Positions 8,895 to 44,750 of a stretch of 64,000 nt of DNA are shown here, in pieces. The position numbers and the translations under genes are program-made. The notes beneath the pieces were generated by a model that was given only the letters and a program-made list of their open reading frames with translations, did not search any database and had not been told where the DNA came from. The stretch is from an uncultured delta proteobacterium. GTDB lineage: Bacteria > Desulfobacterota > RBG-13-43-22. Within the stretch, counting starts at the first letter, position 1, and the number at the start of each line of letters is the position of its first letter. Where the stretch lies: assembly GCA_963790475.1 (NCBI GenBank), contig CAWBOS010000015.1, positions 1 to 64,000 on the forward strand, written 5' to 3'.

Positions 8895-9039
8895 GGGTTA
8901 TTCCTTTTTATTAATGGATAGGGAAAGGATTAAATCTATCACCATTTATGCTATAATATAAAGAATTCCTCGATAAACCACAACATCTTTTAGACTACGT
9001 TTATTGGTGAAGATCACAACTAAAAATTGCATCAAATAT

Positions 9040-9560
9040 TTCCTCTCGCCCGCTTCGCTCGAGCCCACAGAGTTCTCAGAGAGAAAAAACCATAAGGATC
9101 TCAGAGAAGAACATTTTTTGCTTTCCGGTGACGGAACGGAAAGCAAAAAGAGCTTTTTTCATTTACCGCTTCTCACCGGCAAATGAAAATCTTACCTCGG
9201 TGTTCTCTGTGCCTCGAACAAGTCTCGTTTTTATCCCGACGAGTGGGCGGTGAAATAATGTTTCATTTTTCGCCGTCAGGCGACGGATGGTTATTGATTG
9301 CCGGCCCCTCACCGGCAATCAATAATAGGTGTTTTTCTCTGAGACCTCTGCGCACTTTGTGAGAGATAAAAGAATTTTCCTCTCGCCCGTTCACTCCGGT
9401 CACTCGAGATCTCAGAGTTCCCAGAGAGGGACTTCTTTAGCAGGTAAATCGCCTGACTGACCCCGCTACCCTGTGGAGGCGATGGCTGGTTATGATTGTC
9501 CCGCCAACGGGACAATCAATAAATTAAGGTTTCTCTGCGACTCCGAGAGCTCTGTGAGAG
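9040..9560. repeat. Cluster of REP/MITE-like imperfect palindromic repeats
   Basis: TTTCCTCTCGCCCG...CTCGAG...CAGAGTTC(T/C)CAGAGAG at about 9040 and 9376, with inverse CTCTG(T/C)G... partners and several hairpins; no convincing ORF. Confidence 0.55.
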
Positions 9561-9653
9561 GAGGATTGAATTATGTGGCATTTTTTGATAAACTCCAATA
9601 AATTTCTGAAATATCGATAGTGGTCGTTCAAAATCTTTGAAAGGAGAACGAGG

Positions 9654-9986
9654 ATGAAACTCTCAGGGATCTTATTAAGAACCAGTATTTTTTTAATGAT
9701 GGTTTTGGGGGTCGCCAAAGAGGCTTTAGCCGATTATAGAAATTATTGCCAATGGGGCATGGGTTACGGCATGATGGGCGGATTCGGTTTCCTGCTGATG
9801 ATTATTTTCTGGTTGTTGATCGTTGCTTTAATCGTCCTGTTGATCCGTCGGCTGGTTTCTTCAGGCCATACCGGAATTTCAAGTCCGCCACAAGCGGACT
9901 CGGCCCTGGAAATCCTCAAAAAAAGGTATGCCCGCGGGGAGATTGATAAAGAAGAATTTGAAGCTAAAAAGAAAGATCTGAGTTGA
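9654..9986 (+). CDS. SHOCT-domain membrane protein
   Basis: GMGYGMMGG, one TM helix, SALEILKKRYARGEIDKEEFEAKKKDL. Confidence 0.88.
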   Translation: MKLSGILLRTSIFLMMVLGVAKEALADYRNYCQWGMGYGMMGGFGFLLMIIFWLLIVALIVLLIRRLVSSGHTGISSPPQADSALEILKKRYARGEIDKEEFEAKKKDLS

Positions 9987-30107: not shown

Positions 30108-30680
30108 ATGCATCTGAAAAAGTTTTCGGTTTACTTGTTGGGCCTGGTTTTCTTCATCATGACCGGTTTGCTCTGTTCAACAATCCACTCGGCAGAGCAA
30201 ATCCCAAAGGGCACAATACTGCCGGACTTTCAAATAAAGGGCCCTGATTCACCCCAAACAAAAGCTTATTTAGGGGTTAATAATGAAAAGCAATTTTATT
30301 TATCGCAAATCAAGGCGAAACTGGTATTGGTAGAATTCATTGACGTTTACTGACCCATTTGCCAAAAAAACGCCCCTGTGGTCAACAGGATATACAATTT
30401 ATTCAAAGAAGACAAAAATCTGGCTAATGACATTAAAGTGATCGCCATAGGAATTGGAACCCAACCTGAAGAAATGCCCCCCTATAAAAAGACCTTTAAA
30501 GTAGAATTTCCATTATTTATTGACCCCAAGAAAGAGATTCAAAAAAAGTTGAAAGTGGAAGCGGTTCCTCTTGCCGTACTGTTGGACAAGAAGGGCAAAG
30601 TCCTCATGAGTCACAGCGGCGTAATAGGGGACTTTGACGCTTTTGTAAGCGAGATCAAAAAAAACTATCAGGCGCGATAA
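30108..30680 (+). CDS. TlpA/ResA-like thioredoxin-fold selenoprotein (UxxC)
   Basis: Two ORF-track pieces are in frame across TGA 30351-30353: EFIDVY-U-PICQKNAP; N-terminal signal/TM, cis-Pro VEAVP; SECIS-like hairpin follows. Confidence 0.85.
30375..30389 (+). promoter_or_regulatory. Candidate bacterial SECIS hairpin
   Basis: CCTGT-GGTCA-ACAGG; G-first loop 26 nt after the UGA. Confidence 0.6.
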
Positions 30681-30752: not shown

Positions 30753-31676
30753 ATGGCCGTAAACGAAGACATTGCGGATGTCCTGGCCGGAAGCCCGGTT
30801 TTTAAAGAATTACCCAGGGATGCACTGGAGGCCATCGCCGGGGTGGTTCAACCTCTGGTGGTGCCCGACAAAACGGTCATCTTCCGAGAAGGCGATCCTG
30901 GAGATTGCCTCTACATCATCCGTTCAGGGTCGGTGAGGGTCTTCAGGAAAAACGAAGATGGAATGAATTTTGACATTTCCATCAAGGGACCGGGTGAGAC
31001 CGTTGGTGAAATGGCACTCATTACCGGAGAGCCCAGGTCAGCCGACGTCGAGACGCGGGGAGAGACTCACCTGATGGTCCTTTCCAAAGAGCAACTGGAT
31101 CAAATCCTGAGAGACTTTCCCGATATCTCCAAGGTATTCGCCCGGGAGATGCGGCGCTGGCTTTTTACCGATGAAAAGCGTCTCGAGATCCAGGCCCGGG
31201 AAGTACAAAAATCCCAGCGCATGACCTGGTTTGATTTTTTACTGGTTATTGCCGTCAGCGTTATCCTGGCGACGATTTTCAATTACTCCAATCCCAACGG
31301 GATCCGTCTTTTTCCTGAATTCCCCAAAAGGAACTTAGTCCCGTCGGTCGTTCCCACAGTTGCCCTTGAAGAATTACAGCTCGGGCAAACACTCTTTTTA
31401 GATGCCAGGCCGGCCAATTTTTATCAAAAGCGCCACATTAAAGGGGCAATCAATATCCCCCTGAACATTTTCGACATCGTTTACCTGATGACCTTCCCCA
31501 AAGAAGACAAGGAGAAAAAAATCATTATCTATGGTGGCACAGTCAGCCGACTTTATGACTTGGAGCTGGCCGACAAGTTGCTCCTCCGCGGTTACAAGCA
31601 AGTCAAGATCCTGGAAGGGGGCTTGGCGGCCTGGGAGGGAAAGGGGTACCCGATGGAAGGAAGGGTTAAAGAATGA
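30753..31676 (+). CDS. Cyclic-nucleotide-binding domain + TM + rhodanese-like domain protein
   Basis: IFREGDPGD, GEMALITGEPRSA; FLDARP...HIKGAINIP, ILEGGLAAW; active-site Cys replaced (IIIYG). Confidence 0.85.
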   Translation: MAVNEDIADVLAGSPVFKELPRDALEAIAGVVQPLVVPDKTVIFREGDPGDCLYIIRSGSVRVFRKNEDGMNFDISIKGPGETVGEMALITGEPRSADVETRGETHLMVLSKEQLDQILRDFPDISKVFAREMRRWLFTDEKRLEIQAREVQKSQRMTWFDFLLVIAVSVILATIFNYSNPNGIRLFPEFPKRNLVPSVVPTVALEELQLGQTLFLDARPANFYQKRHIKGAINIPLNIFDIVYLMTFPKEDKEKKIIIYGGTVSRLYDLELADKLLLRGYKQVKILEGGLAAWEGKGYPMEGRVKE

Positions 31677-32176
31677 ATGGGGCCTACGTCAAAGGAATCC
31701 TGACCAGCAGGTATTTGGCCTTTGCCTTCAGGCTATTGGTAGGAGGTTCTTTCCTCTATGCCAGCCTAAGCAAGATCCCCTATCCGGCTCAGTTTGCGGA
31801 GGCGACCGCAAATTACCAGCTCGTGCCCTATTGGATGCTCAATCCAGGATCGTTGGTTTTACCGTGGATTGAGTTTGTCTGCGCGCTGTTCCTGATCATC
31901 GGGTTCACCTCCAGGGCTTCCGCGGTCCTTATTGGCTTATTGCTGATCATGTTCGATACCATGGTCGGGATCAACATGTACTGGGGGGCCCCCATCAGTT
32001 GCGGATGTTACGATGCGGTGGGCGAGCCTATCGGCTGGCAGAAAATTATAGAAAACGTCATATTGTTGGGCTTTACTATCCATGTCTTCTTTTTTGACCG
32101 ACTTTTCCTGTTTCGCCGGGGAGGCCGGACCGATCCGGCAAAAATCACTGTTCCTCCTTCTAACGCCTCACGATAG
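31673..32176 (+). CDS. MauE/DoxX-family membrane protein
   Basis: FLYASLSKI, LPWIEF, ISCGCY; overlaps upstream stop (ATGA). Confidence 0.85.
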   Translation: MNGAYVKGILTSRYLAFAFRLLVGGSFLYASLSKIPYPAQFAEATANYQLVPYWMLNPGSLVLPWIEFVCALFLIIGFTSRASAVLIGLLLIMFDTMVGINMYWGAPISCGCYDAVGEPIGWQKIIENVILLGFTIHVFFFDRLFLFRRGGRTDPAKITVPPSNASR

Positions 32177-32185
32177 GTGTCTTAT

Positions 32186-32530
32186 ATGTTAATTAAGCCA
32201 AATTCCTTTTTCCGTTTTCGGCTGTTGTCCTTCGTCCTGCTTTTGATCTTCGTAATCTCCTGTGGATCAAAAGACAAGGTCGCCGGGGTCTACAAGGCAG
32301 AGGGAAAAGACTCGCCTAAACAGGTCGAAACCCTGGTCGAGCTCAAACCCAATGGGGACGGGGCCTGGAAGATAGGCGACGAAGAAGTCCCCTTCTCCTG
32401 GTATATCAAGGGCGGTGAGCTTAGAATCAACACCAAAGGGGGCGGGGTCATCGTCGGCAGCATTGAAGGGGATACCATTCAGATGACCATCCCGGGCACC
32501 AAGAAAATGGCCTTTAAGAAAATCCAGTAA
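32186..32530 (+). CDS. Hypothetical lipoprotein (lipocalin-like beta domain)
   Basis: Hydrophobic leader + VISC lipobox. Confidence 0.7.
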   Translation: MLIKPNSFFRFRLLSFVLLLIFVISCGSKDKVAGVYKAEGKDSPKQVETLVELKPNGDGAWKIGDEEVPFSWYIKGGELRINTKGGGVIVGSIEGDTIQMTIPGTKKMAFKKIQ

Positions 32531-32870
32531 TTACTCCGGGCTTATCGGATTCACCGCATTTTTTTACTGATGACCTGGAGGGCCGCATCCAAAGAGAGGG
32601 GAGCGAGTGCGGATCACTGATCAACCCATCGATGTCGATGACCCGGCACCACCTTTTCTCGAAACGTTTTGGTAGAAACCTGAAAGGCAACCTAAACTCA
32701 CAGGATGAAATCAAGATAAAAGTACTGATGGCGGAGCATGTGAAATTAACAATGAGTGAGGCTTCGCCTATTTCTGATAAAGGGGAAAAGAAACCAAGAA
32801 TTTCTCTCTGATACAAAATCCATTATAGGGGTGGCCGCCAAACCCTGTCATTAGGGGGGGGACATCTACC

Positions 32871-35800
32871 ATGAACTGTCCGAAATGCAGGAGCGAGAAT
32901 TCTGAAGGGACAAAGTTCTGCCGCGAATGCGGCGCCCGGTTGGAAAGGGTTTGTCCCCAGTGCCACGCCGCCAGTCCTCCCCACTTCAAATTCTGCCGAG
33001 AGTGCGGGCATCCCTTGTCCGCATCTTCGGAACCACCTATCCCAAAATCCCTTTCGGAAAAACAGCCGACCCCCTCCCCTCCCCCCCAAGAGCTAACCGA
33101 GAAAATCTTGGCCCAGAGGGGGCGGATCGAGGGCGAGCGCCGTCAGGTGACGGTGATGTTCTGCGATCTGGTGGGTTCTACCGCCCAGACCGAAAAGCTG
33201 GGAGACGAGAAAGCCTTTGCCCTCATCGATGAGCTCTTCGGCATCCTGACACAGCAGGTCCACAGATATGAGGGGACGGTCCAGGAGTTTCGGGGAGATG
33301 GCATTATGGCCCTTTTCGGGGCCCCCCTTGCTCTGGAAAACACTGCCCAGCGGGCCGTTAGCACCTCTCTGGCCATCCACCAGGAGGTAAACCGGTTCAA
33401 CAACCGGTCCCTTGAGGGATCCCGAAGCCCGGCCATCCGCATGCGGATCGGAATCCATACCGGTCCGGTCATTCTGGGCAGCATCGGCAGCGATCTGCGT
33501 CTGGAGTTCCAGGTCATCGGTGATACGGTAAACCTGGCCGCCCGGATGGAAGCGCTTGCAGAACCGGGAACCACCTATCTGACTAAAGAGACCTACCGAC
33601 TGGCTAAGGGCCTGTTTCATTTCCAGCCCGTGGGGGAAAAAGTAGTTAAAGGTAAGGAAAACCCGATTTCCGTCTACAAGGTTCTTTCCGCCAAAGAAGA
33701 CGTGTACCGCCCTCGTTTGGGTTCTGAGCGGCAGATTTACTCCCGGATAGTCGGAAGGGACAGCGAGCTGAATAAGCTCGAGCTTCAGGTGATGAAAGCG
33801 GTCAACGATCAGGGATCAGTCGTTAATATTATCGGCGAAGCTGGTATTGGAAAATCGCGGCTCCTGGCAGAGTTGAAAAATCGGGAGGTAATGAAAAGGG
33901 TAACCCTCATGGAGGGAAGGGCGATTTCCATAGGCAAAAATCTGAGCTTTCACCCGATTACTGATCTTTTGAAACAATGGGCGGGCATCAGGAGTGACGA
34001 TGGCGAGGCCAAGACTTTTGACAAACTCCAGGCTGCCATAAAAAGGGTCTTTCGCGAAGAGTATAGTGAGGTGCTTCCTTTTGTGGCCATCCTGATGGGG
34101 ATGAAGCTGCCCGGAATCCATGCCCAGAGGGCAGAAGGGATAGAGGGCGAAGCCCTGAATAATCTGATTCTAAAAAGTGTAAGGGATCTGTTGGTCAAGG
34201 CGACGGAACTGACTCCTCTGGTGATGGTGATCGATGACTTGCATTGGGCTGACACCAGTTCCATCGAGCTCATGGAATCCCTTTTTCGCCTGGCAGAGAC
34301 ACACAAGATTCTTTTCATCAATCTTTTTCGGCCCGGCTACCAGGAAACCGGAGACCGCTTAGTTGAATCCCTCAAAGACCGCCAGGTGAACTACTATGTC
34401 GAAATAGTGCTGGAGCCCCTGCCGGAAAAAATGAGTGAAGCCCTCATCGGCAACATGTTGAACTTCAAAGAGCTTCAACATGCCTGGGTCACCGGCATCG
34501 TAGAGAGAACTGGAGGCAATCCCTTCTTTATTGAAGAAGTCGTTCGCTCCCTGATCGATGAACAAGCGCTTTTGCCGAAGGGAGGCGCATTTCATTTGAC
34601 CGATAAAGCGGCAACCATCTCTATTCCCAACACTATTGAAGAGTTACTGATGACCCGGATCGACCGGTTGGAGGAGCAGACCCGTGACCTGGTGAAGGAC
34701 GCATCGGTAATCGGAAGGTCTTTCTTCTATCGCATCCTGGCCAAGGTGGCCTCCGAAATCGAAAATATCGATGCCCGGCTCACCTATCTGCAGGAAATTC
34801 AGCTCCTCCGGGAACGATTGAGAATGGGCGAGTTAGAGTACCTCTTCAAGCATGCCCTGGCCCAGGAGGTGGCTTACGAATCCATTCTGCCCCTGAAAAG
34901 AAAGGAGCTTCATCTAGCGGTAGCCCAAGCCATAGAAAAGGTCTTTGAGGAAAGACTCCATGAATTCTACGGGATGCTCGCCTATCATTATTGCCAGGCC
35001 GAAAGTCTGGAGGAGGCCGAGGAGTGCCTGATCAAGGCTGGGGAGGAGGCCCTGAGATCAGCCGCCTCAGATGAGGCCCTGCATTATTATGAGGAAGCCC
35101 TCCAGCTCTATCTGAAAAAGTCCGGCAAAGACGCCCATCCCGAAAAGCTGGCCATGTTGGAGAAGAATATTGCCCTGGCTCTGTATAACCGGGGGCAGCA
35201 TCAAGAGGCCGTTAATCATTTTGAAAAGGCCCTGGATTATTACTGGCGGAAATTACCGAAAAGTGCGGTTTTTGTGACAGTCAAACTCTTTTCGGCGTTA
35301 AGTCACTTCTTCTTAGCCTTGTACCTGCCAACCATGAAGTTCAAGAAGACACCGTCAGAGCGGGATATCGAAATCGTCGATCTATTTTTTAAGAAGATCA
35401 ATTCGATCTCATTAACCGATGCTAAGAGATCTTTCATTGAGTATTTCCACTTGTTCAGGTTTATCAGTCTCTTCAACCTTCGTAAATTCAGAGATGGTTA
35501 TGGAATCTTCTCCATGTCCAGTGCTTTGTTTGCCTACTCCGGAATTTCATTTGCTTTGAGCAGAAAAGTCTTAGATTCCATTAGAAACAAAGTCGACAAA
35601 AACGACCCTATAAACCAGATAATGTTTGGGATTTGTGAAACAGTGTATCTTTTTTTGGGAGGGGACTGGAAAAATTTAAAGGACTATGATGGTGAACTGG
35701 TAGAACAGAATTGCAGGATTGGGGAAATTTATAATGTTTCACAATACTTGTTCTGGAATGGGCTTGGTGCGATCTGCCGAGGTTATTTCGACAAAGCCGA

Positions 35801-36551
35801 GGAGATTGCGAATAGATTGCATGATCTCTACGAAGTCTATGGGAATGTACTTTCCGAAATTTTTAGATACGAAGTCAGTACCATGCTGCTGATCGAGTCC
35901 GGTAAACTTGATGAGGCAAAAGTTGAATCCGAAAAGGGAGTTGCCTTCGGGCAAAAAACAAATTCAATTTATTGGTGGGAATTGCATTTATGCCAAGCCT
36001 ATATACACATCTCGAGGGGTACAATCGAAAAGGCACAGGAATACCTTGAGCAGGCCGACAGAATTAGGGTTCAAACAGAAACAGCCCCATTGCAATTGTC
36101 ATGGCATTATCAAATTCAATTGGAATTTGACCTTTACCACTTAAGGGAATCAACTAAGAGCGGAAATCGAACAGAAATTGATAAATTCCGAAGAGCAACC
36201 CTCAAGTCTATCAGGGCACTCGAAAAGGTTGCACGAAAAGTAGCCTATCATCGAACCGATTCATACAGGCTTACCGGAGCCTATTACTGGATGATCCATA
36301 AACACGAAAAGGCTCTCGGATGGTGGCAGAAAGGGGTTCAGGAAGGGCAGCGCCTGGGAGCGCGCCCTCAACTGGCCCGGCTGTACTTCGAGGTAGGCAA
36401 GTGCCTGATCGAGGAAAAGGGTAAATATTCAAAACTGGCTGGCCTCGAGGGAAAGGAATATCTGGAAAAGGCCAGGGCATTGTTTGAAGAAATGAAAATA
36501 GAATCCTACCTGGAAGAAATAGATCGAGTTGTCGAGATGAGGAGCCTTTGA
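32871..36551 (+). CDS. Class III adenylate/guanylate cyclase with double zinc ribbon, STAND-type AAA ATPase and TPR repeats
   Basis: CPKC/CREC/CPQC/CREC; FCDLVGST, GDGIMALFG, GDTVNLAARME; GEAGIGKSRL, IDDLHWAD, GGNPFF, FKHAL; helical C-terminus. Confidence 0.92.
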   Translation: MNCPKCRSENSEGTKFCRECGARLERVCPQCHAASPPHFKFCRECGHPLSASSEPPIPKSLSEKQPTPSPPPQELTEKILAQRGRIEGERRQVTVMFCDLVGSTAQTEKLGDEKAFALIDELFGILTQQVHRYEGTVQEFRGDGIMALFGAPLALENTAQRAVSTSLAIHQEVNRFNNRSLEGSRSPAIRMRIGIHTGPVILGSIGSDLRLEFQVIGDTVNLAARMEALAEPGTTYLTKETYRLAKGLFHFQPVGEKVVKGKENPISVYKVLSAKEDVYRPRLGSERQIYSRIVGRDSELNKLELQVMKAVNDQGSVVNIIGEAGIGKSRLLAELKNREVMKRVTLMEGRAISIGKNLSFHPITDLLKQWAGIRSDDGEAKTFDKLQAAIKRVFREEYSEVLPFVAILMGMKLPGIHAQRAEGIEGEALNNLILKSVRDLLVKATELTPLVMVIDDLHWADTSSIELMESLFRLAETHKILFINLFRPGYQETGDRLVESLKDRQVNYYVEIVLEPLPEKMSEALIGNMLNFKELQHAWVTGIVERTGGNPFFIEEVVRSLIDEQALLPKGGAFHLTDKAATISIPNTIEELLMTRIDRLEEQTRDLVKDASVIGRSFFYRILAKVASEIENIDARLTYLQEIQLLRERLRMGELEYLFKHALAQEVAYESILPLKRKELHLAVAQAIEKVFEERLHEFYGMLAYHYCQAESLEEAEECLIKAGEEALRSAASDEALHYYEEALQLYLKKSGKDAHPEKLAMLEKNIALALYNRGQHQEAVNHFEKALDYYWRKLPKSAVFVTVKLFSALSHFFLALYLPTMKFKKTPSERDIEIVDLFFKKINSISLTDAKRSFIEYFHLFRFISLFNLRKFRDGYGIFSMSSALFAYSGISFALSRKVLDSIRNKVDKNDPINQIMFGICETVYLFLGGDWKNLKDYDGELVEQNCRIGEIYNVSQYLFWNGLGAICRGYFDKAEEIANRLHDLYEVYGNVLSEIFRYEVSTMLLIESGKLDEAKVESEKGVAFGQKTNSIYWWELHLCQAYIHISRGTIEKAQEYLEQADRIRVQTETAPLQLSWHYQIQLEFDLYHLRESTKSGNRTEIDKFRRATLKSIRALEKVARKVAYHRTDSYRLTGAYYWMIHKHEKALGWWQKGVQEGQRLGARPQLARLYFEVGKCLIEEKGKYSKLAGLEGKEYLEKARALFEEMKIESYLEEIDRVVEMRSL

Positions 36552-37543
36552 TGGAACGCAGGATCGCTGATTTACGGTCATTCTGCTCCCGGGTCGATTT
36601 TGGCCCTGTAGACCTCTCCCGAGAAGAAGAAGAATTCCGTGGGGAGCTGAACCGGGAAATGCTCTCGTTCTGTCAATGCCTGCCGAAATCTATGCGAACG
36701 AAGGCAGCCCTGTTCTTGATGGAATACCTGCACGCCTCCTTTAGGGAGGGCCTTAATTTTGTCAACTACTTCTACGCCCCGGCCTGGTCGATCCTTTTTT
36801 GGCTTCATCGATCCTGTCCTAATAACAGGAAACTGACCCCAAAATATTTAAAAGATGCAAATACCGGCCATACCATGGCCATGTTCCTTCATGCCTTCGA
36901 CGACCATCTTACTGATGGTCAATTGCCTGTTTCAAACCTAGCTCTGCTAATGAGAAGCCACGCCTGGATGATCATGAACCAGGCCTTTGAAAGATTAGCC
37001 AAGGGAGTTGGGAATGGAGAATCAATTGTAATCGATTTTATCAACGATTACTATTCCAGTATCGATTCATCTGACCAAAAGGGATCCCTCGACAGCTACT
37101 GCAAGTTTTTCAGAAAACAGATGGCGACATGGTTGATTGCTCCTGTACTTATCGCAAAAAAGATCAATTCCAATGAAGAGTTTGTCCGCTCTATTGAGAC
37201 AGCCTATTCCTCTTTCGGCATTGCCTATAGGCTTCTCGATGATCTACAGGATATTGAAAAAGACATGATAAAAGGAGTCCATTCTTCCCCATATACTTGT
37301 CTTCCCGCCAAGATGAGGAAAGTTTGGAACCACGTAAAGGAAGAAAAAGCGGATGGAAATGGCGACTATGCCAGGCAGATTCTGAACTACATCCAGAAAA
37401 ATGGGATAATCGATAGAATAAGGAAAAGGATATGCGATGAGCTGGAAACAGCCACATCCAGGGCGGATTCTTGCAAGATGTCAGGCTTCGCTGATGAGCT
37501 TCGTTGTCTTTTGAGACCATTGAAGAATGGGGAGAATCACTGA
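36551..37543 (+). CDS. Class 1 isoprenoid-synthase-fold protein (polyprenyl/prenyltransferase-like)
   Basis: Two Asp-rich motifs HAFDDHLTD and GIAYRLLDDLQD, all-helical; TGATG coupling to the cyclase. Confidence 0.75.
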   Translation: MERRIADLRSFCSRVDFGPVDLSREEEEFRGELNREMLSFCQCLPKSMRTKAALFLMEYLHASFREGLNFVNYFYAPAWSILFWLHRSCPNNRKLTPKYLKDANTGHTMAMFLHAFDDHLTDGQLPVSNLALLMRSHAWMIMNQAFERLAKGVGNGESIVIDFINDYYSSIDSSDQKGSLDSYCKFFRKQMATWLIAPVLIAKKINSNEEFVRSIETAYSSFGIAYRLLDDLQDIEKDMIKGVHSSPYTCLPAKMRKVWNHVKEEKADGNGDYARQILNYIQKNGIIDRIRKRICDELETATSRADSCKMSGFADELRCLLRPLKNGENH

Positions 37544-38706
37544 TGAAAGGGACCACTTCAGATGAAATCTGTCGAGGAGTGGAGCAAGAAAAACTCTCTA
37601 TCGAAGTGACCACGCGATGCAACGGCTCCTGCCTGCATTGTTTTGCCCGCTCCAATAACTCCAGAAGCTCTACCCTCCCTGTCGATTTGGTCAAAGAGAT
37701 CATAGTCGAGGGATATGATGCCGGATACCGTCACCTCCATATTACAGGGGGTGAGCCCCTGCTTTGGGAAGGCTTGTTCGAGACCCTGGACTATGGCCTT
37801 GGTATCGGATTCGAAACAATCTTCATGAATACCAATGGAACACTCATAACGGAAGAGATCAGCAAGAGACTCGCCGACTACAGCACCTTTTTTTCGATGT
37901 CGATCAGCCTGGATGGGCCCGAAGCCTTGCATGACCGCATACGAGGAAAGGGATCGCACCAAAAAACGATGCTGGGCATTGAGAGGGCTCTCAATAGGGG
38001 AATTGATCTTACCATCTTCACAACGGTTACAAAAAGGCTATTACCCGAGTTGCCGCTATTCGTCGGTGACCTGTTCAAGCGATTTCCCAATATTGACTAT
38101 TTGATTCTCATCCAGCTTATCAAAACGACGAATGTCCCCTTTGCCCTGTCGGAAGAACTTCTTAACCCGGAAGACTTCGTGCGACTGGTGCGAATGGTTG
38201 CCCTTCTGGATGTCGGCGGTTTCCGCGCCATTGTGAAGAAGAACCCTTTGGCCAACGTGGTTTCCAAGATGCTGGAGATGCCTTGGATCCCTCGGGTCCC
38301 TCCCCTTTACCGCGAGGGATGCCTGATTGTCCTGGCCAACAGGCATGTCAGTGTGGTGCACTCCAACAGAAATAGCCTCGGCCGATACACGTCCGGTATG
38401 ATTCGAAAAGTCCTGGACTCCGATGAATATCGCAAAACCGTTGCGCCGGATAATACGACCTGTCCATGGTGCAGTTATGTCCAAATATGTGAAGAAAATG
38501 GAATGATTCGGCCCCCCCATGGGTACGGAGACATTTACGGCGATTCGCCTTTTTGCCGCCGGGTATTGGATAGTCTTGCACAGGATCAACCGATTTTCGG
38601 GGCTAACTTAGGCGGACGCGTACCCTTATCAGCTGATAAGGCGTATACCAAGAAGAGCCGGAACCGGTCACTGACTAAAACGCTAAAAGAAAGGAGGGAT
38701 ATATAA
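37543..38706 (+). CDS. Radical SAM protein with C-terminal Cys cluster
   Basis: CNGSCLHC, TGGEPLL, TNGTLI, ISLDG..HDRIRG; CPWC..IC...FC; TGATG coupling. Confidence 0.9.
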   Translation: MKGTTSDEICRGVEQEKLSIEVTTRCNGSCLHCFARSNNSRSSTLPVDLVKEIIVEGYDAGYRHLHITGGEPLLWEGLFETLDYGLGIGFETIFMNTNGTLITEEISKRLADYSTFFSMSISLDGPEALHDRIRGKGSHQKTMLGIERALNRGIDLTIFTTVTKRLLPELPLFVGDLFKRFPNIDYLILIQLIKTTNVPFALSEELLNPEDFVRLVRMVALLDVGGFRAIVKKNPLANVVSKMLEMPWIPRVPPLYREGCLIVLANRHVSVVHSNRNSLGRYTSGMIRKVLDSDEYRKTVAPDNTTCPWCSYVQICEENGMIRPPHGYGDIYGDSPFCRRVLDSLAQDQPIFGANLGGRVPLSADKAYTKKSRNRSLTKTLKERRDI

Positions 38707-38865
38707 AGCCAAGAATAGAGAACAAAACTCTCAACGGTTTTGGCGAAGAGCAAGAGGGCTTTCAGATCGAAAAGAACCCGGTATGAAAAATGGCTCTACG
38801 AGGATCTTCGGCAGGAGACAACCTCATGATTTCAAACATTCAACACAAAAGATAAGGAGGAAAAG

Positions 38866-39108
38866 ATGACAACCAATAGAAAAAGAAGTGATTTCATTAA
38901 CTTCATCATGGATGCTGAAAAAAACCAAAAAATGCTAGACGAGTTTCTGAAAATAAAAGAGGCTAAAAAACTTTACAATTTCTTCAAAAGAAATAACTAC
39001 ATAGACATACCTTTCAATGATTGCCAAGATATACTGAAGGCTATGAGATCTTGGATTGGAGGGGGAGGGAGGGGACCTATCTGTCCCCCTGGAGCAAAGA
39101 TTTACTAA
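38866..39108 (+). CDS. Putative RiPP precursor peptide (Nif11-like helical leader, Gly/Pro/Cys/Trp/Tyr core)
   Basis: AAGGAGG RBS; 80 aa between two radical SAM genes; DFINFIMDAEKNQKMLDEF leader; core ...SWIGGGGRGPICPPGAKIY. Confidence 0.65.
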   Translation: MTTNRKRSDFINFIMDAEKNQKMLDEFLKIKEAKKLYNFFKRNNYIDIPFNDCQDILKAMRSWIGGGGRGPICPPGAKIY

Positions 39109-39364
39109 TATGAGAACAATGTGTAACTAAGACTCTGGGGCGTGAATATCTGTTCGCTTATCCAAGCTGCCTTGAGCTCGAATTTCGATCAATTGTCTGA
39201 ATTTGGATGAGTTAAAGAGCGGGAGTGAGAAACGAAGGGCGCTATTCGTTTGCCTGGCAGTGGTTGCTTGCAATGACTCGTAGTAATGTGGTCTGTCGGT
39301 GGGGTTCCTCAAACCCCACCGACTCACTTTGTAAATCGATTCGACCTAGAAGAAGAGGCTATTT

Positions 39365-40726
39365 GTGATTAAAATCCTCAAGTCAGATTTCAATTCTGTT
39401 GCATTCAGCACGGAATCATTGACCTTGTACCCGTTGCCGGCTCGGATTGGTGAATCTCTTATGGATAACGAGGAGTATACTTCAGAACATTTACCGGAGA
39501 CATTTAAGGATGATTACATCAATGACAATCCGGTGAAAATCAATCGGCTCCTATTATTAGTGGCACAAACCTGTAATATCAAATGCTCTTATTGTATTGC
39601 CGAAGCTTACATGGGACCATATTCTGTAGATCAAATTATGAGCCCGACTACCGCCTGTGTCGCGATTGAGAAAGTGTTCAAAAGCGCACCGGATGTTTCG
39701 GAGGTTATTTTTTTTGGAGGAGAGCCTTTGATGGGTTTTGCTACCATCAGGAAAGCGGTACAAGCCAGCGAAGAATACTGTGGGGCGCATCAAATTCGGA
39801 AGCCCTCTTTTTCTATCACCACCAATGGAACATTGATAAACCAAGAAATGATCGAATTTTTTAAGGAACATAATTTCTCGGTGACTATTAGTTTGGATGG
39901 CCCTCCGCACATTAATGATAAGCAACGCCGGTTTCCGTCAGGAAAAGGCACTTATGACTTGGTCAAGAAGAAAATTGATCTGCTTTGCAGTTCGGGCTTA
40001 GAGTTCGGAATAGAAGCCGTATTCACGGACCGCCATAGGGAATATAAAGAGACCATTGAATCGATCTACAAGTTTCTTCTTAGATTGGGTGCCCGGGAAA
40101 TTAGCCTGACCCCTCCTATAGGGGGATCACCGGACGAATGGATTAATCGGGATTTGTTGACCGATTTGGAACAAAGCTATGTTTCTTCGACCGAGAAGAT
40201 TATGGAAAGTTGGTTGAGCGACTCTCCGATTAGAATGCCTTATTGGATCGACATGTTAAAAACGCTCGTATCCCGGGAGGGCAAAACCCATTTCTGCGAT
40301 GCCGGTTACGGGGGGATTGCAGTGGACTGCACCGGGAGAGTATTTCCCTGCCACGCCGTTATGGGCAACAGCCTTTATATGGGAAGCGTCTACGACAAAG
40401 AGTTCCCCGGCGAGGACTTCAGAAGGGTAGCGCTGCGGATGCGCCAGACTTCAAAGGACAGCTTTCCCAAGTGTCGCGGATGTTGGGCCAAGAATCTGTG
40501 CTCTCCATGCTACGGTGATACTTTTGTTAAATCCGGAACTCTAAGTGCACCCCGAGAAAGTATATGTATAATAATTCGCTCGGTTGCCAAAGCTATATTG
40601 CTTAAGGTGGCGGAATTCATGTCTGATGAAGAGAAATGGAAAAGGTTCACTGAGGTTTTTAATCTTTCACAGTTTTATTTCGATATGGACCACAAAGATT
40701 TCAATACAGCCCATCATTCAAAATAG
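39365..40726 (+). CDS. Radical SAM/SPASM peptide maturase (anSME/CteB-like)
   Basis: CNIKCSYC, FFGGEPL, TTNGTL, SLDGP; SPASM CDAG...GRVFPC...CRGC...CSPC...C. Confidence 0.9.
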   Translation: MIKILKSDFNSVAFSTESLTLYPLPARIGESLMDNEEYTSEHLPETFKDDYINDNPVKINRLLLLVAQTCNIKCSYCIAEAYMGPYSVDQIMSPTTACVAIEKVFKSAPDVSEVIFFGGEPLMGFATIRKAVQASEEYCGAHQIRKPSFSITTNGTLINQEMIEFFKEHNFSVTISLDGPPHINDKQRRFPSGKGTYDLVKKKIDLLCSSGLEFGIEAVFTDRHREYKETIESIYKFLLRLGAREISLTPPIGGSPDEWINRDLLTDLEQSYVSSTEKIMESWLSDSPIRMPYWIDMLKTLVSREGKTHFCDAGYGGIAVDCTGRVFPCHAVMGNSLYMGSVYDKEFPGEDFRRVALRMRQTSKDSFPKCRGCWAKNLCSPCYGDTFVKSGTLSAPRESICIIIRSVAKAILLKVAEFMSDEEKWKRFTEVFNLSQFYFDMDHKDFNTAHHSK

Positions 40727-40736
40727 GAGATCAATC

Positions 40737-42476
40737 ATGCCAAAAATAACGCACGTGCAATTGCCCGGTAGCTATCGAAGTAAAGACCCCACCGCCTTTC
40801 GGGTTGGTGATGTCAACCCCAAAGAAAAGATCATTGTCACCATCGGGCTTAAAGGCCCGAAACTCCCTGGTCCAGGAGAACACATCGGCCATACCTTTAC
40901 GCCCGATCAGATAGCCGAGAAATTCAGCGTAGAGAAGACTGATGCTGTTAAGGTAACAGAAACACTAAAGAATTATGGCCTAAAAGTTTTAGAAATCTCA
41001 CTGGTGACGCGCAGCATGCGCCTCATCGGAACGGCAGAAAACATGGAAGCCGCTTTCAAACCTGACTGGGCGGTCATGAGCTCATGTCGCCAGCCACGAT
41101 ATCGTGGTCGACAGGGAGTACTCTACATACCTGAAAAGCTTAAGGGTATTGTGACTGGGGTTTTCGGACTCGATCAGCGGCAAATGGCACATCGGAGGAC
41201 GGGTCTAAAGGGCCCGACAAATATATCGTCTGTGCTAGAAAGCCCGTTTACACCGAAAGATATCATAAGGCAATATAATTTCCCATCAGGGGATGGTTTA
41301 GGCGAAACTATTGCGATCGCGGCGTTTGCTGGCGGCTATTTCGCCGAAGACATGGATGCCTATTTCGTTAGAGTCTTCAGAAGTCAAGGGCAAAATATAC
41401 CCACCCCTGGTGTTAAAACAATTTCGGTAAATGCTCCAGCCTACACACTTCAGGAGATTCTTTCGCTCCCTATTCCGGAGCAAATAATAAACCAAATTAG
41501 CTATAGTTTCGAAGTGATGACGGACACCGAACTAATCGCAGGATTATGTCCAAAGGCGAACATTGTAGTCTACTTTTCCACATTTGACGAAGGTGGATGG
41601 ATCGGTCTCCTCGACAGGATTTTCAACGACGCAAAGCAATCCCATCGCGTCCAAAAGCCAATCCCGGTCGCGCTTTCAATCAGTTGGGGTTTGCCTGAGG
41701 ATTATTGGACAAAGAATCAAAGGGACCAAATCAACGATCAATTAAATAGATTAAGCCTGCTGGGTATCACCACCTGTGTCGCCTCAGGGGACGACGGTTC
41801 GAGAGGTTACATCCAGGATGGCCAAGCCCATGTCGATTTTCCAAGCTCTAGTCCCTTCGTGTTGAGTGTTGGCGGAACCATGCTGAAGGCTAATATTAGA
41901 AATAATCCGATAATCGGTAATCCGATAATCCGTGTCCAGGAGGTTGTTTGGTGGGAAACATGGACCGATCCACTCCGCATCTCCTATGTATCTACGACGG
42001 GGGGCGGAGTTAGTACGAAAAATCTACGCCCGAATTGGCAGGATGGTCCGCTGGTTACCCCACTCAGGCAACAACCCCTCAATCCGCTAGCCTTTGACGG
42101 TCGTGTGGTGCCCGATGTTGCTGCTCTGGCCGGAAAACCATATTATGACTTGATTTTCCTTGGGTTACCGGTGAAGACCGGGGCGACAAGTGCCTCGGCA
42201 CCCGTCTGGGCCGCCCTCATCGCACGAATCAATGCCAAACTCCCACAAAATAGGCAAGGGCGATTTCTGACTCCTCTGCTCTACCAGAAACTGCCACCGC
42301 CAGACGGCCGGGTTGTTGGTCAGGTCTCGTGCCGGGATATTACCCAAGGTGATAATACACCTGACTACCCCCCTCCTAATGGCTACAAGGCGGGGATAGG
42401 GTTCGATAAGGTTACAGGGTGGGGAGTCCCGGATGGGATGAAACTTCTCGATTGTTTGAATCAGGTTATACCTTAG
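40737..42476 (+). CDS. S53 sedolisin/kumamolisin-family serine-carboxyl peptidase with prodomain, no signal peptide
   Basis: EVMTD (Glu/Asp), SISWG, ASGDDG, VPDVAA, ATSASAP (Ser), GFDKVTGWG; start after AGGAGA. Confidence 0.9.
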   Translation: MPKITHVQLPGSYRSKDPTAFRVGDVNPKEKIIVTIGLKGPKLPGPGEHIGHTFTPDQIAEKFSVEKTDAVKVTETLKNYGLKVLEISLVTRSMRLIGTAENMEAAFKPDWAVMSSCRQPRYRGRQGVLYIPEKLKGIVTGVFGLDQRQMAHRRTGLKGPTNISSVLESPFTPKDIIRQYNFPSGDGLGETIAIAAFAGGYFAEDMDAYFVRVFRSQGQNIPTPGVKTISVNAPAYTLQEILSLPIPEQIINQISYSFEVMTDTELIAGLCPKANIVVYFSTFDEGGWIGLLDRIFNDAKQSHRVQKPIPVALSISWGLPEDYWTKNQRDQINDQLNRLSLLGITTCVASGDDGSRGYIQDGQAHVDFPSSSPFVLSVGGTMLKANIRNNPIIGNPIIRVQEVVWWETWTDPLRISYVSTTGGGVSTKNLRPNWQDGPLVTPLRQQPLNPLAFDGRVVPDVAALAGKPYYDLIFLGLPVKTGATSASAPVWAALIARINAKLPQNRQGRFLTPLLYQKLPPPDGRVVGQVSCRDITQGDNTPDYPPPNGYKAGIGFDKVTGWGVPDGMKLLDCLNQVIP

Positions 42477-42623
42477 TCAGCACTCCATGACTTGTATCTA
42501 AGAGCGTTCCCGAAAAGTAAATCCTGCTTTTAACTTTATTTTAATAAAAGGATTTTGGCCAGGCAAGGGCGCTGACCACCAACACGGCTTGACCGGAAGA
42601 GATATGCTTAGTCATAAGGATTT

Positions 42624-43826
42624 GTGATGCCTTCGCGAGGATTAAAAACGACAGCCGGTTTATTGAATTGCCCGATCATGATTGTTGGGGCGGGACCTGC
42701 CGGGATTTCCACCTGGCTGCATCTTCAAAAGGAGGCCCCGCAATTGGCCCGCTTTTCCCTTGTCATCGAAAAGGCCATTTTCCCACGAGACAAATTGTGT
42801 GGGGGCGGTTTATGCTCTTGGGTTGCCGATGCGCTGGCCTACCTGGGGGTGGACCTTGATATACCATCCTTGTCTGTTTCTGATCTGGAGTTCAGATTTG
42901 GGAAAGAGATCGATCTTATTCACCAGGATAATTATTTCCAAGTCGTCCAGCGTGTTGATTTTGATCAGGCCCTGGCAAGAGCCGCGGTTAAGCGAGGCCT
43001 TGACCTGCATGAAGACGAAATACTTGTCGATATTCTTCGGACCCGGAACAAGCTGGTTGTAACAACCAATAAAGGGAAATATGCCGTGCAAGCCCTCGTT
43101 GGTGCGGACGGAGCTTTCAGCTTAGTTCGCAAGAAGATGATCTCATCCCGGAAACATCATCTTGCGCGTACACTTCAGGTATTCGCTCCCGCTGACTCCC
43201 GATATGATCACGAATTCACGGAAAAAAAGACGGTTGTCGATCTCACGCCCATCAAAAAGGGTTTGCAGGGCTACGTTTGGCACGTGCCTTGTCTGAAGGA
43301 TAAGACCCCTTCCATCGCCCATGGCATAGTTGATTTCCGGGTTTGGCCTGATAGACCAAAGGCAGACATGAAGAAGATATTCGGCCAAGAATTGGAAAGC
43401 AGAAATATTCATCAGGACCCTAAGGCCTGGTCCAGTCACCCCATTCCTTGGTATTCGGAGGAGGACATCCTGTCACAGCCCAATGTGATCCTGGTAGGAG
43501 ACGCCGCAGGAGTTGAGCCGGCCTTTGGAGGAGGTATCCACCTCTCACTGGCCTACGGGGAGGTTGCCGCTAAAGCTATTATCGATGCCTTCCAAGCCGA
43601 TGACTTATCTTTCCAGGATTACACCCAAAGGATACAGTCCCATCAAGTTGGGCAGCATATATCCAAATGCACCCGTATAGCCCGGGCAATGTATGGTGGC
43701 AAGATGAATCCTTTGGATGGGGCACGGGAGGTTTTTGCTCCCGAATATGATTCCTCCGCTATGATGCGTGAATTGCTGTCCAGGTACTTGGAACTCCATC
43801 CCCAATCGTCTTCAGACCCTAAATGA
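42624..43826 (+). CDS. FAD-dependent oxidoreductase, geranylgeranyl reductase family
   Basis: IVGAGPAG, EKAIFPRDKLCGGGL, RVDFD, GADG, LVGDAAG, GGGI. Confidence 0.85.
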   Translation: MMPSRGLKTTAGLLNCPIMIVGAGPAGISTWLHLQKEAPQLARFSLVIEKAIFPRDKLCGGGLCSWVADALAYLGVDLDIPSLSVSDLEFRFGKEIDLIHQDNYFQVVQRVDFDQALARAAVKRGLDLHEDEILVDILRTRNKLVVTTNKGKYAVQALVGADGAFSLVRKKMISSRKHHLARTLQVFAPADSRYDHEFTEKKTVVDLTPIKKGLQGYVWHVPCLKDKTPSIAHGIVDFRVWPDRPKADMKKIFGQELESRNIHQDPKAWSSHPIPWYSEEDILSQPNVILVGDAAGVEPAFGGGIHLSLAYGEVAAKAIIDAFQADDLSFQDYTQRIQSHQVGQHISKCTRIARAMYGGKMNPLDGAREVFAPEYDSSAMMRELLSRYLELHPQSSSDPK

Positions 43827-43972
43827 TTCTGTAACGGAATCGGTGAACCTATACAGATCACCCGAGGTCAGAAAATACGCCGCCAGTTATCAAACAATTA
43901 CTTCTTTCCAACCAATACCCGGAAACTAAAGAAAAAGTATTTGATCCCGGTTACATTTTTCACCGCCAATTA

Positions 43973-44750
43973 TCAGGGCCACCTTCTGGTTAAATCAAGA
44001 TAGTAGCTCGTGGTCTCAGTTGACTGGTCCTTATACTTAATCGTTATCTCGATCGTGAATTGTCCCCTTCCTGATGATTCCAGGGCGAATTGGTCGTCAG
44101 GATTTGACCGCACCTGCAAGGGATTGGGAAACGTCGGACGTAATAGATACTGGACTTCGGCTATTTGATTGAGGACTTGAAAAGGTTCATCCACAAAAAC
44201 ACGCCAGTTGTAATAGTTCCTGCCCTGAATTGCAGATATGCTTCTGGCATAATTGTTGATCCTGACCTTGATTTTCCTTTCAGCCGCGAAGGCGCTTCTT
44301 GTCAGGCTCAGGGTAAGCAGAGATTTCGCGGCCTGGTTTTGAGGGAGGACGGTGGCAATCAATGATTGTCGTTGATAATTGGGATAAAAGGGAAGCACCT
44401 TCCACAGATTTCCATTCTTATCCGTCAGGGTCATCCGGAAAGCTTTGGTCATGCCATTAAAAGGAATTTTAGCCGTCCACCAGCCGATGATCTGTCCGGC
44501 CGTCAGTTCAACTGGTCCGGACCGCGTCTCGGATTTCCCTGAGCTTGATTGCTCATTATATTCATAAGTACCCCTTTGGAGTTCGAAGGTCTCCACTTTC
44601 ACATTTGCAGGTGGTTCGAGATTGACAAAAATGTCCAGTGGTAACGATGGTGATTGGGTTTTGGCCCATATGATCACCACGCCAACAACAGCGGCGGCAA
44701 ATCCCCCCCACCGCCCAATTACGAAATTTCTTGTCCGTTTTTATGACGCC
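43973..44750 (-). pseudogene. Membrane-anchored pYEATS-domain protein, 5'-truncated and frameshifted at a G tract
   Basis: WRVFVDE...QIAEVQYLLRPTFPNP...FALESSGRGQF is a prokaryotic YEATS pattern; N-terminal TM (FAAAVVGVVIIW) reached by a shift near 44705. Confidence 0.6.

Follow-up and report, generated by a model that had tools for sequence, protein, structure and literature searches.

We analysed a gene cassette of an uncultured delta proteobacterium in which an enzyme folded like a trans-isoprenyl diphosphate synthase (trans-IDS) is encoded beside a radical S-adenosylmethionine (SAM) enzyme, here called rSAM1, and a short peptide ending in tyrosine. The window is the whole stretch of DNA that was analysed, that is, 64,000 nucleotides of contig CAWBOS010000015.1 (GCA_963790475.1), positions 1 to 64,000 forward, and all coordinates are those of the window. 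The enzyme, its partner, the peptide and a large regulator are encoded as follows.

32871..36551, + strand: regulator and possible receptor, 1226 residues, with a double zinc ribbon, a class III adenylate/guanylate cyclase domain, AAA_16 and TPR (Pfam Guanylate_cyc 1.6e-27, AAA_16 4.8e-23, TPR families)
36551..37543, + strand: gene of the synthase-fold enzyme, ATG at 36551, stop codon 37541-37543, 330 residues; trans-isoprenyl-diphosphate-synthase fold, unnamed family
36899..36916, + strand: first Asp-rich motif DDHLTD, residues 117-122 (D117, D118, H119, D122) by translation, at the C-terminal end of model helix 97-121
37229..37264, + strand: R227 and second Asp-rich motif DDLQDIEKD (D230, D231, D234, D238) by translation
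37543..38706, + strand: rSAM1, radical SAM partner, 387 residues from ATG 37543 (MKG...), Pfam Radical_SAM 1.2e-23; start placed by comparison with relatives
38866..39108, + strand: precursor peptide, 80 residues, with a distant Nif11-like leader, a variable core and the terminal Tyr80 (sequence and family profile)

Fold and metal site of the enzyme

The first-pass annotation of this DNA had proposed an isoprenoid-synthase-fold enzyme which carries DDHLTD and DDLQD but neither GKRxR nor RRG. Translation confirms the two motifs, DDLQD being residues 230-234 and extending to DDLQDIEKD (nucleotides 37238-37264), and a search of the 330-residue protein finds neither of the strings GKR and RRG; presence and absence both hold family-wide. 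The first motif is spaced D1-D2-D6 (DDxxxD), a variant of the canonical DDxxD.

Pfam reports the enzyme only below threshold, with equal scores of 14.6 bits (E 0.02) for polyprenyl_synt (PF00348, cut-off 27) and Terpene_synth_C (PF03936, cut-off 26.3). No NCBIfam model matches the enzyme, its single sequence gives chance-level matches only against the PDB, and the family profile gives marginal synthase matches around the second motif (E 0.01). The proposed fold is confirmed by a structure model and two structure searches. The AlphaFold2 model, computed from a 101-row alignment, is all-helical with a predicted local distance difference test (pLDDT) of 95.1 and a predicted template modelling score of 0.93. 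Foldseek against the PDB places isoprenoid and polyprenyl synthases on top (E 2e-5 to 3e-4, template modelling (TM) score about 0.6-0.69; TM 0.66 is cited with E 2e-5). VIA-align, a Foldseek-independent structure search over 48,161 chains, likewise ranks trans-isoprenyl diphosphate synthases first, with ten entries at Z >= 19.9 and 9jqs_A as the best (Z 22.8, root-mean-square deviation (rmsd) 3.0, 286 residues aligned). Solanesyl, geranylgeranyl and heptaprenyl diphosphate synthases match best in structure, followed by prenyltransferases that share the fold but do not elongate (MoeN5 with Z 17.8 and the indole prenyltransferase Ord1 with Z 17.3), and class I terpene cyclases reach Z 11.3-12.7 (DabA 11.8). 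Because the synthases score Z of about 20-22.8 and the cyclases at most 12.7, the fold is synthase-like rather than cyclase-like. The likeness to true synthases (PF00348; 9jqs, 3n3d and 5h9d, Z 20.9-22.8, rmsd 2.9-3.4 over 266-286 residues) includes two facing Asp-rich motifs on equivalent helices and a second motif whose sequence aligns directly.

The enzyme belongs to a large unnamed family that is covered by no curated model. A word-index search found 389 homologues at E <= 0.001 among 1008 candidates; among the matches listed (120 of the 389) identity is 59-75%, and most are unnamed or go by 'hypothetical protein', two being the NCBI 'class 1 isoprenoid biosynthesis enzyme'. An exhaustive search of 50%-identity representatives gave 251 at E <= 0.001, 217 at E <= 1e-10 and 112 at E <= 1e-30. 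The homologues number hundreds and come from sediment, peat and symbiont metagenomes, the metagenome scan having used a closer 31-sequence alignment. Related records are titled Desulfobacterales and Olavius Delta-4 symbiont, those of the phylum being labelled Desulfobacterales, Syntrophales and Deltaproteobacteria, and Atlas has its nearest clusters in Myxococcota, Thermodesulfobacteriota and Actinomycetota. Across the phylum 10 of 401 sampled genomes match at E <= 1e-5, seven of them strongly and at near full length. The cassette is sporadic and was found in 4 of 61 relatives.

We aligned 101 family members, whose identity to the window protein runs from 73% down to about 24%. D122, Y167, R227, D231 and D238 are present in all 101 sequences, D118, H119, D230 and D234 in 100 and D117 in 99; H114, R135, W139, W226, P77 and W79 are also found in at least 96. 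With this conservation the motifs in the window protein are not there by chance. R135 and R227 are the only strongly conserved basic positions of the whole protein, and no Lys/Arg column before residue 135 reaches 50% conservation. Thus, the basic residues which form the isopentenyl diphosphate (IPP) site of true synthases are absent across the family and not just from the window copy.

The family profile was further aligned globally to a profile of 30 PF00348 proteins that genomes of this phylum encode. Sequence similarity to true synthases is marginal (profile-PDB E 0.01, hhalign probability 5-18%), with alignment probabilities of 5% and 1.5% for the host's own synthases and 17.9% for the 30-synthase profile. 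Only the region of the second motif is therefore secure, and the mapping of the missing Lys/Arg is tentative. In the secure region family FGIAYRLLDDLQD aligns with synthase LGIAFQLVDDLLD, and the Gln of the synthase motif FQxxDD corresponds to R227, which is Arg in 101/101 sequences. Elsewhere in the 17.9% alignment GGKRxRP of the synthases would fall on Y..PxW, a segment specific to the family and free of basic residues, the loop with RRG behind the first motif would be deleted, the Lys of the KT region would become Q190 and the Lys after the second motif would fall on a non-conserved position. Compared with true synthases, the enzyme is therefore without GKRxR and RRG and, on this mapping, without the conserved Lys of the KT and GK regions.

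Precursor peptide, gene order and partner enzymes

As the first-pass annotation had stated, the neighbouring peptide has a single Trp at position 63 and ends in Tyr80; its core also holds Cys73. A hidden Markov model (HMM) seeded with five precursors matched 50 small open reading frames (ORFs) in the related loci and the window, and 50/50 end in Tyr. In four loci with no HMM match the small ORF after rSAM1 is still Tyr-ended. After removal of duplicates all 48 distinct peptides end in Tyr, as against 178 of the 6125 ORFs of 30-160 codons in the same DNA (2.9%), and five further peptides found later are no exception. The rule is kept in four further genomes at 44-52% enzyme identity, where the peptides end in ...ETGY (L009) or, in three from other families, in ...PPFY, ...GVKY and ...LIKY. 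F13 and Y80 alone are invariant in an alignment of 40 peptides. The Tyr is preceded by G, S or A in 27/48 peptides, and K or R stands one position further ahead in 26/48. Only 4 of 40 family peptides match Nif11 (PF07862; best E 1.1e-5), and the window's own copy does not. A Trp occurs anywhere in the last 25 residues in 13/48 peptides, and there is no conserved Trp column. Of the two acceptors that had been put forward, Tyr80 is thus strengthened, and Trp63 was rejected as Trp is not conserved in the precursors.

A search of the host's own genome with the peptide profile found no precursor beyond the one known. In locus L081 two tandem, partly overlapping precursor-like ORFs (9058-9429 and 9383-9751, + strand) both end in ...PDSY, and some cassettes may encode two precursors.

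The gene order was compared in related loci from genomes and metagenomes. From the 85 loci, 83 were counted for layout; L007 and L009 were left out for their opposite orientation only and contain the same genes. A regulator homologue lies directly upstream of the enzyme gene in 61 of the 62 loci with at least 300 nucleotides upstream. rSAM1 follows the enzyme gene in 77/83 loci, and the contigs of the remaining six run out at the enzyme gene or just beyond it. A Tyr-ended small ORF was found in each of the 46 loci that extend at least 700 nucleotides downstream, 42 by HMM and four by eye. The counts support a genetic tie between the enzyme and the neighbouring peptide. The order regulator, enzyme, rSAM1, peptide holds in related loci, and the enzyme thus shares with the ComQ/PalQ type a gene position beside its precursor peptide and a sensor or regulator. 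Among the 23 loci with at least 5 kilobases downstream a SPASM gene is present in 9, an S53 peptidase gene in 4 and a flavoprotein gene in 12. From these counts we take regulator, enzyme, rSAM1 and peptide as the core and the remaining genes as accessory. In L038 (253-495, + strand) and L074 (63-302, + strand) the Tyr-ended peptide gene stands upstream of the synthase-fold gene and not after rSAM1, so the core gene order is not absolutely fixed.

The regulator and enzyme genes as well as the enzyme and rSAM1 genes overlap by one base at a TGATG. In L063 and L075 enzyme and rSAM1 are a single ORF of 673 codons. Of ten unusually long relatives that were scanned, five carry Radical_SAM on the C-terminal side of the synthase-fold part; FAD_binding_3 is found at the N-terminus of one, FAD_binding_4 in two and no additional domain in two. 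Examples are P0167, a PF01494-type FAD domain fused to a synthase-fold protein, and P0234 and P0263, which are fusions with FAD_binding_4 flavoprotein domains. The first-pass view of a possibly 'ComQ-like' enzyme had overlooked the obligatory radical SAM partner, whose gene overlaps that of the enzyme and is fused to it in some relatives.

rSAM1 has the cluster motif CX3CX2C at C26/C30/C33 and a C-terminal CX2CX5C...C at C307/C310/C316/C338, which is probably an auxiliary cluster site. These Cys positions are invariant in 40 sequences. Its best NCBIfam matches are AhbD, AhbC, NirJ and MftC, all of them far below cut-off and covering the radical SAM core only; for MftC (TIGR03962) the score is 70.4 bits against a cut-off of 265 and the N-terminal core alone aligns. 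The best PDB sequence match is the cytosylglucuronate decarboxylase 7vob (BlsE, 9.5e-9).

The regulator scores 311 bits with NCBIfam TOMM_kin_cyc, under the cut-off of 705.75. A hydropathy scan found a single hydrophobic stretch in it (residues 799-817), which is too little to call it a membrane protein, and none in the enzyme, rSAM1, the S53 peptidase or the flavoprotein. A promoter and terminator scan of 32300-44200 gave counts at or below shuffled expectation. Among the sequencing runs listed for 36551-39108 no RNA run contains this stretch, and DNA runs contain it only in part. Just upstream of the regulator (30753-32176, + strand) the window encodes a cyclic-nucleotide-binding and rhodanese protein and a MauE/DoxX membrane protein. 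The same pair is found in L008 (18812-19899) just after the flavoprotein gene, at 74% and 70% identity, and L014 and L020 have weaker matches to the cyclic-nucleotide-binding domain upstream. The pair may be a reader of the product of the regulator's cyclase.

Three accessory genes follow the peptide gene in the window.

39365..40726, + strand: rSAM2, radical SAM/SPASM maturase (Radical_SAM, Fer4_12 and SPASM domains)
40737..42476, + strand: S53 (sedolisin/kumamolisin-type) peptidase, start ATG 40737 (Pro-kuma_activ 2.5e-9; Peptidase_S8 just below cut-off)
42624..43826, + strand: flavoprotein of the geranylgeranyl-reductase/halogenase superfamily (NCBIfam GG-red-SF 121.3 bits, E 6.2e-35)

The matches of rSAM2 to rSAM_nif11 (198.5 bits), PapB (187.6) and QhpD-type (169.8) models of NCBIfam are all below cut-off. 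A Cys occurs within the 15 residues before the terminal Tyr in 15 of 16 loci with rSAM2 versus 7 of 21 without, and from this co-occurrence rSAM2 is probably a Cys-directed thioether former, acting on Cys73 here. The S53 peptidase, which has no evident signal peptide, is a candidate leader or core protease; several other loci carry S8 subtilases.

The flavoprotein stays below the cut-off of the geranylgeranyl reductase (GGR) family TIGR02032 (121.3 vs 158.8 bits). Its C58 is invariant in 15 sequences within the motif FPRDKLC(G/A)GG. Profile comparison with the PDB places flavin halogenases best (5.5e-12) and the GGR 3oz2, a digeranylgeranylglycerophospholipid reductase, fourth (5.9e-8), and a structure model from the 15-sequence alignment has a mean pLDDT of 48.2, too poor for a structure search. 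The flavoprotein may reduce a prenyl chain or an enamide, but might just as well be a hydroxylase or a halogenase.

In fourteen loci (L008, L009, L014, L029, L040, L047, L051, L054, L059, L060, L063, L070, L075 and L092) a B12-binding radical SAM gene of 420-503 residues comes after the peptide gene. Its best matches are HpnJ, BchE, ApyD and HpnR, all below cut-off. Among 37 tabulated loci this gene and the flavoprotein gene are nearly mutually exclusive, both occurring in L008 only, and the two look like alternative tailoring steps. Locus L040 further encodes inside its cassette (8234-9328, + strand) a protein with a CrtC-type (carotenoid 1,2-hydratase) N-terminal domain and a lipocalin domain, and a homologue is present in a second locus. 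Such an isoprenoid-hydrating enzyme fits a prenylated product.

Proposed reaction and alternatives

We suggest that the enzyme is a prenyl-diphosphate-ionising transferase which works together with rSAM1 on the C-terminal Tyr of the peptide, and we give this reading about an even chance of being right. The enzyme would be the prenyl-diphosphate-binding half of a two-enzyme pair for peptide maturation. Its facing motifs DDHxxD and DDxxDxxxD would bind Mg2+ and ionise an allylic prenyl diphosphate that the host's own synthases provide, as the double Asp-rich site kept on a synthase fold suggests. The second substrate site, which is the IPP site in true synthases, would have been lost, and the loss of this site points to a different acceptor. 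The terminal Tyr is invariant in the co-encoded peptide, and we therefore read the enzyme as a Tyr80 prenyltransferase acting together with rSAM1, the acceptor being the Tyr of the Nif11-like precursor encoded two genes downstream. The Tyr could be attacked directly, at the phenol oxygen or at ring C3, or after alteration by rSAM1. That the enzyme keeps allylic activation and has exchanged its acceptor was also the first-pass proposal; the retained Asp motifs and the lost basic residues of the IPP site agree with it, and from them we infer the prenyl transfer itself.

The radical SAM step would most plausibly be an oxidative decarboxylation of the terminal Tyr in the manner of MftC or AhbD, which is hinted at by the mostly decarboxylating enzymes that rSAM1 matches. 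Decarboxylation would explain why the Tyr must be terminal with a free C-terminus, and it would yield an enamide nucleophile chemically like indole C3, the position at which all known enzymes of this type act. Later tailoring might be carried out by the Cys-directed SPASM enzyme, the S53 peptidase and the GGR-family flavoprotein in the window and by the B12 radical SAM enzyme in other loci. The GGR-family flavoprotein, the CrtC-type homologue and the B12 matches, which include HpnJ and HpnR, give the accessory genes an isoprenoid flavour. The product would be a lipidated peptide, and the co-translated cyclase/ATPase/TPR protein is maybe its regulator or receptor.

Several points weigh against this proposal. 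The prenyl transfer to Tyr by an isoprenoid-synthase fold is without precedent, and for a plain prenyltransferase an inseparable radical SAM partner would be superfluous, which suggests that the actual reaction may be a different one. Bacterial terpene cyclases, too, have motifs similar to the pattern DDHxxD plus DDxxDxxxD. The cassette contains no prenyl-diphosphate synthase and no exporter. The profile alignment from which the missing Lys/Arg are mapped has a low confidence (17.9%), and in this same alignment several diphosphate-binding Lys of the synthases are missing beyond those of the IPP site. Diphosphate binding would then have to rest on R135, R227 and metals. The flavoprotein is ambiguous, with halogenases above GGR in the PDB profile search, and its gene is missing from about half of the loci. 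Finally, according to the review PMC13290415 the trans-IDS-like peptide prenyltransferases characterised so far all target Trp. Predictions of the three-chain complex of enzyme, rSAM1 and peptide count neither for nor against the proposal, as the runs scored 0.71, 0.38 and 0.41 and a control in which another protein stood in for rSAM1 scored 0.50.

The known peptide prenyltransferases of this fold provide the closest analogy. PalQ of Paenibacillus alvei prenylates a conserved C-terminal Trp, which must be terminal, in a peptide with an NHLP leader, and a histidine kinase gene adjoins (PMC10853753). The PalQ/PalX/PalP system resembles the present one in its enzyme, which is of the isoprenoid-synthase superfamily and makes up a sequence cluster of its own, in its precursor, whose leader is of the nitrile-hydratase/Nif11 type and whose very last residue is a conserved aromatic one, and in a sensor or regulator gene in the same gene cluster. 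PalQ also favours Gly before the acceptor (PMC13290415), comparable to the G, S or A found here. In contrast, PalQ modifies Trp at indole C3 and refuses other nucleophilic residues, whereas the residue here is a terminal Tyr; it has a conserved Gln before the second motif, described as central to Trp recognition (PMC13290415), where the present family has the invariant Arg; it is described without a radical SAM enzyme; sensing is assigned to a histidine kinase and not to a cyclase/ATPase/TPR protein; and it comes from Firmicutes and not from a phylum whose related records are labelled Desulfobacterales, Syntrophales and Deltaproteobacteria.

ComQ/ComX of Bacillus and StheQ/StheX (10.64898/2026.08.29.745113) likewise combine a trans-IDS fold that prenylates a ribosomal peptide, a precursor with a variable core and one invariant aromatic acceptor near the C-terminus, and an operon which includes a sensing component. 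ComQ and StheQ, however, modify an internal Trp with a first motif and a pseudo-second motif N-D-x-x-D in which the same preprint sees no metal, whereas the present family has a full invariant DDxxD(xxxD). ComQ also has its own InterPro family, and the enzyme described here reaches no curated model. The label 'ComQ-like' thus stands as an analogy of mechanism and gene layout and fails as membership, given the PF00348 score of 14.6 against 27 bits and the replacement of the Gln by an invariant Arg. With Arg in 101/101 sequences at the Gln site, a complete second motif, a Tyr acceptor and an obligatory radical SAM partner, the enzyme would work like ComQ and PalQ and not be one of them.

Prenylation of peptide Tyr is established chemistry of RiPPs (peptides made by the ribosome and modified after translation), namely in the cyanobactin enzymes PagF and PirF (PMC13290415). 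These differ in their unrelated ABBA barrel fold, their mostly C5 or C10 donors and in having no radical SAM partner. A likeness to rSAM1 is offered by mycofactocin, where the radical SAM/SPASM-type enzyme MftC is encoded beside the small peptide MftA, which ends in Val-Tyr; both systems place such an enzyme next to a small peptide of which only the C-terminal Tyr is needed, and the best matches of rSAM1 (AhbD, AhbC, NirJ, MftC and, in the PDB, BlsE) are for the most part radical SAM enzymes that decarboxylate. The residue next to the last varies here and is Val in MftA, the score of rSAM1 is far from the MftC cut-off (70.4 against 265 bits), and no MftB-, MftD-, MftE- or MftF-like genes were seen here. 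To our knowledge, mycofactocin systems have no partner of isoprenoid fold.

Among the other explanations, we first consider that the class I fold and its metal site serve a different chemistry, using another diphosphate or phosphate substrate or cyclising or rearranging a group which the radical SAM enzyme has installed on the Tyr. Most of the diphosphate-binding Lys/Arg of the synthases are missing, the family-specific conserved residues H114, H119, R135, W139, Y167 and R227 have no assigned role, and the obligatory radical SAM pairing as well as the FAD_binding_4 fusions P0234 and P0263 would suit such a reaction. However, in all members of the fold that have been characterised, a set of seven conserved Asp in two facing motifs is the signature of allylic-diphosphate ionisation, and the accessory GGR-family and CrtC-like genes suggest an isoprenoid. 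We regard a different chemistry as improbable.

The enzyme might also be a non-catalytic docking or scaffold subunit that presents the leader or the terminal Tyr to rSAM1 and so replaces a recognition element of the PqqD type. Pfam and NCBIfam scans detected no recognition-element domain in rSAM1 or the rest of the core cassette, and the translational coupling of enzyme and rSAM1 and their fusion in several lineages agree with a structural role. Yet D117, D118, D122, D230, D231, D234 and D238 would not have stayed invariant or nearly so down to about 24% identity in a mere scaffold, and we consider this role distinctly unlikely.

We doubt to a similar degree that the enzyme is a terpene synthase or cyclase, producing a free terpenoid or cyclising a prenyl chain that another enzyme has put on the peptide. 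In a member-by-member Pfam scan at E <= 0.01 Terpene_synth_C was matched as often as polyprenyl_synt (7/101 each, SQS_PSY 2/101), with a best Terpene_synth_C E of 8.9e-7; the window protein has E 0.02 for both families, and the automatic name of the nearest Atlas cluster is 'Terpene synthase'. The second motif DDxxDxxxD has the 1-5-9 spacing of the NSE/DTE triad, but Asp throughout, and DDHxxD/E is found in bacterial cyclases. On the fold, however, this alternative, which the first-pass annotation had also named, becomes less likely, since cyclases reach at most Z 12.7 and synthases 20-22.8. Moreover, the cassette has no other prenyltransferase, and a free terpene would leave the strict coupling to a Tyr-ended peptide unexplained.

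It is very unlikely that the enzyme elongates chains as an ordinary prenyl diphosphate synthase and so supplies the pathway with its donor. The best structural matches are indeed enzymes of this kind, but GKRxR and RRG are absent with no conserved basic substitute, the PF00348 score is 14.6 bits for a cut-off of 27, and the host genome already carries two full PF00348 synthases besides a third locus that is matched as two neighbouring pieces. That the enzyme prenylates Trp63 in the manner of ComQ is scarcely credible: the window peptide has its single Trp near the start of the variable region, and the peptide prenyltransferases known with this fold are ComQ and PalQ, yet only 13/48 precursors have a Trp in the last 25 residues, in no conserved column, and the Gln that serves Trp recognition according to PMC13290415 is an invariant Arg in the enzyme family.

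If the Tyr80 prenyltransferase reading is true, the enzyme would be the first Tyr-directed member of the ComQ/PalQ type and Tyr a new acceptor for the fold. Full-text searches of the literature, supplementary files aside, turned up no account of this cassette, nor any trans-IDS-like peptide prenyltransferase directed at Tyr. An enzyme of this kind locked to a radical SAM partner would probably add a radical/carbocation hybrid chemistry to RiPP biosynthesis, and it could become a tool for site-specific lipidation of protein C-termini. A large cyclase/STAND protein is the constant companion of the cassette, a hint that anaerobes may have a route of peptide signalling that is so far unstudied. 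It is conceivable, though on balance rather improbable, that the cassette is the first example of a new RiPP class of anaerobic bacteria, in which a unit of trans-IDS fold and radical SAM enzyme would turn the terminal Tyr into a prenylated, probably decarboxylated residue and the lipidated peptide would be sensed by the cyclase/ATPase/TPR protein, giving a ComQXPA-like peptide-signalling module with cyclic-nucleotide output.

Other observations in the window

Convergent with the end of the cassette, a 235-residue protein with a C-terminal pYEATS domain (E 4.3e-17) is encoded at 43973-44680 (- strand).

Further upstream, MutS appears to be broken up over consecutive ORFs at 24300-26923 (- strand): 25417-26538 contains domains II, III and IV, 24300-25424 contains domain V, and an overlapping ORF extends over 26273-26923. 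A frameshift or pseudogenisation of the mismatch-repair gene may lie behind this, or else an assembly error, the genome bin having an estimated contamination of 9.68%.

A signal-peptide-like ORF of 81 codons (30108-30353, + strand) is followed 24 nucleotides on by a thioredoxin-like ORF of 100 codons (30378-30680, + strand), whose match to the Thioredoxin_8 and AhpC/TSA models is confined to their C-terminal part. The two look like a single thiol-disulfide oxidoreductase gene that was split by a stop codon or a frameshift.

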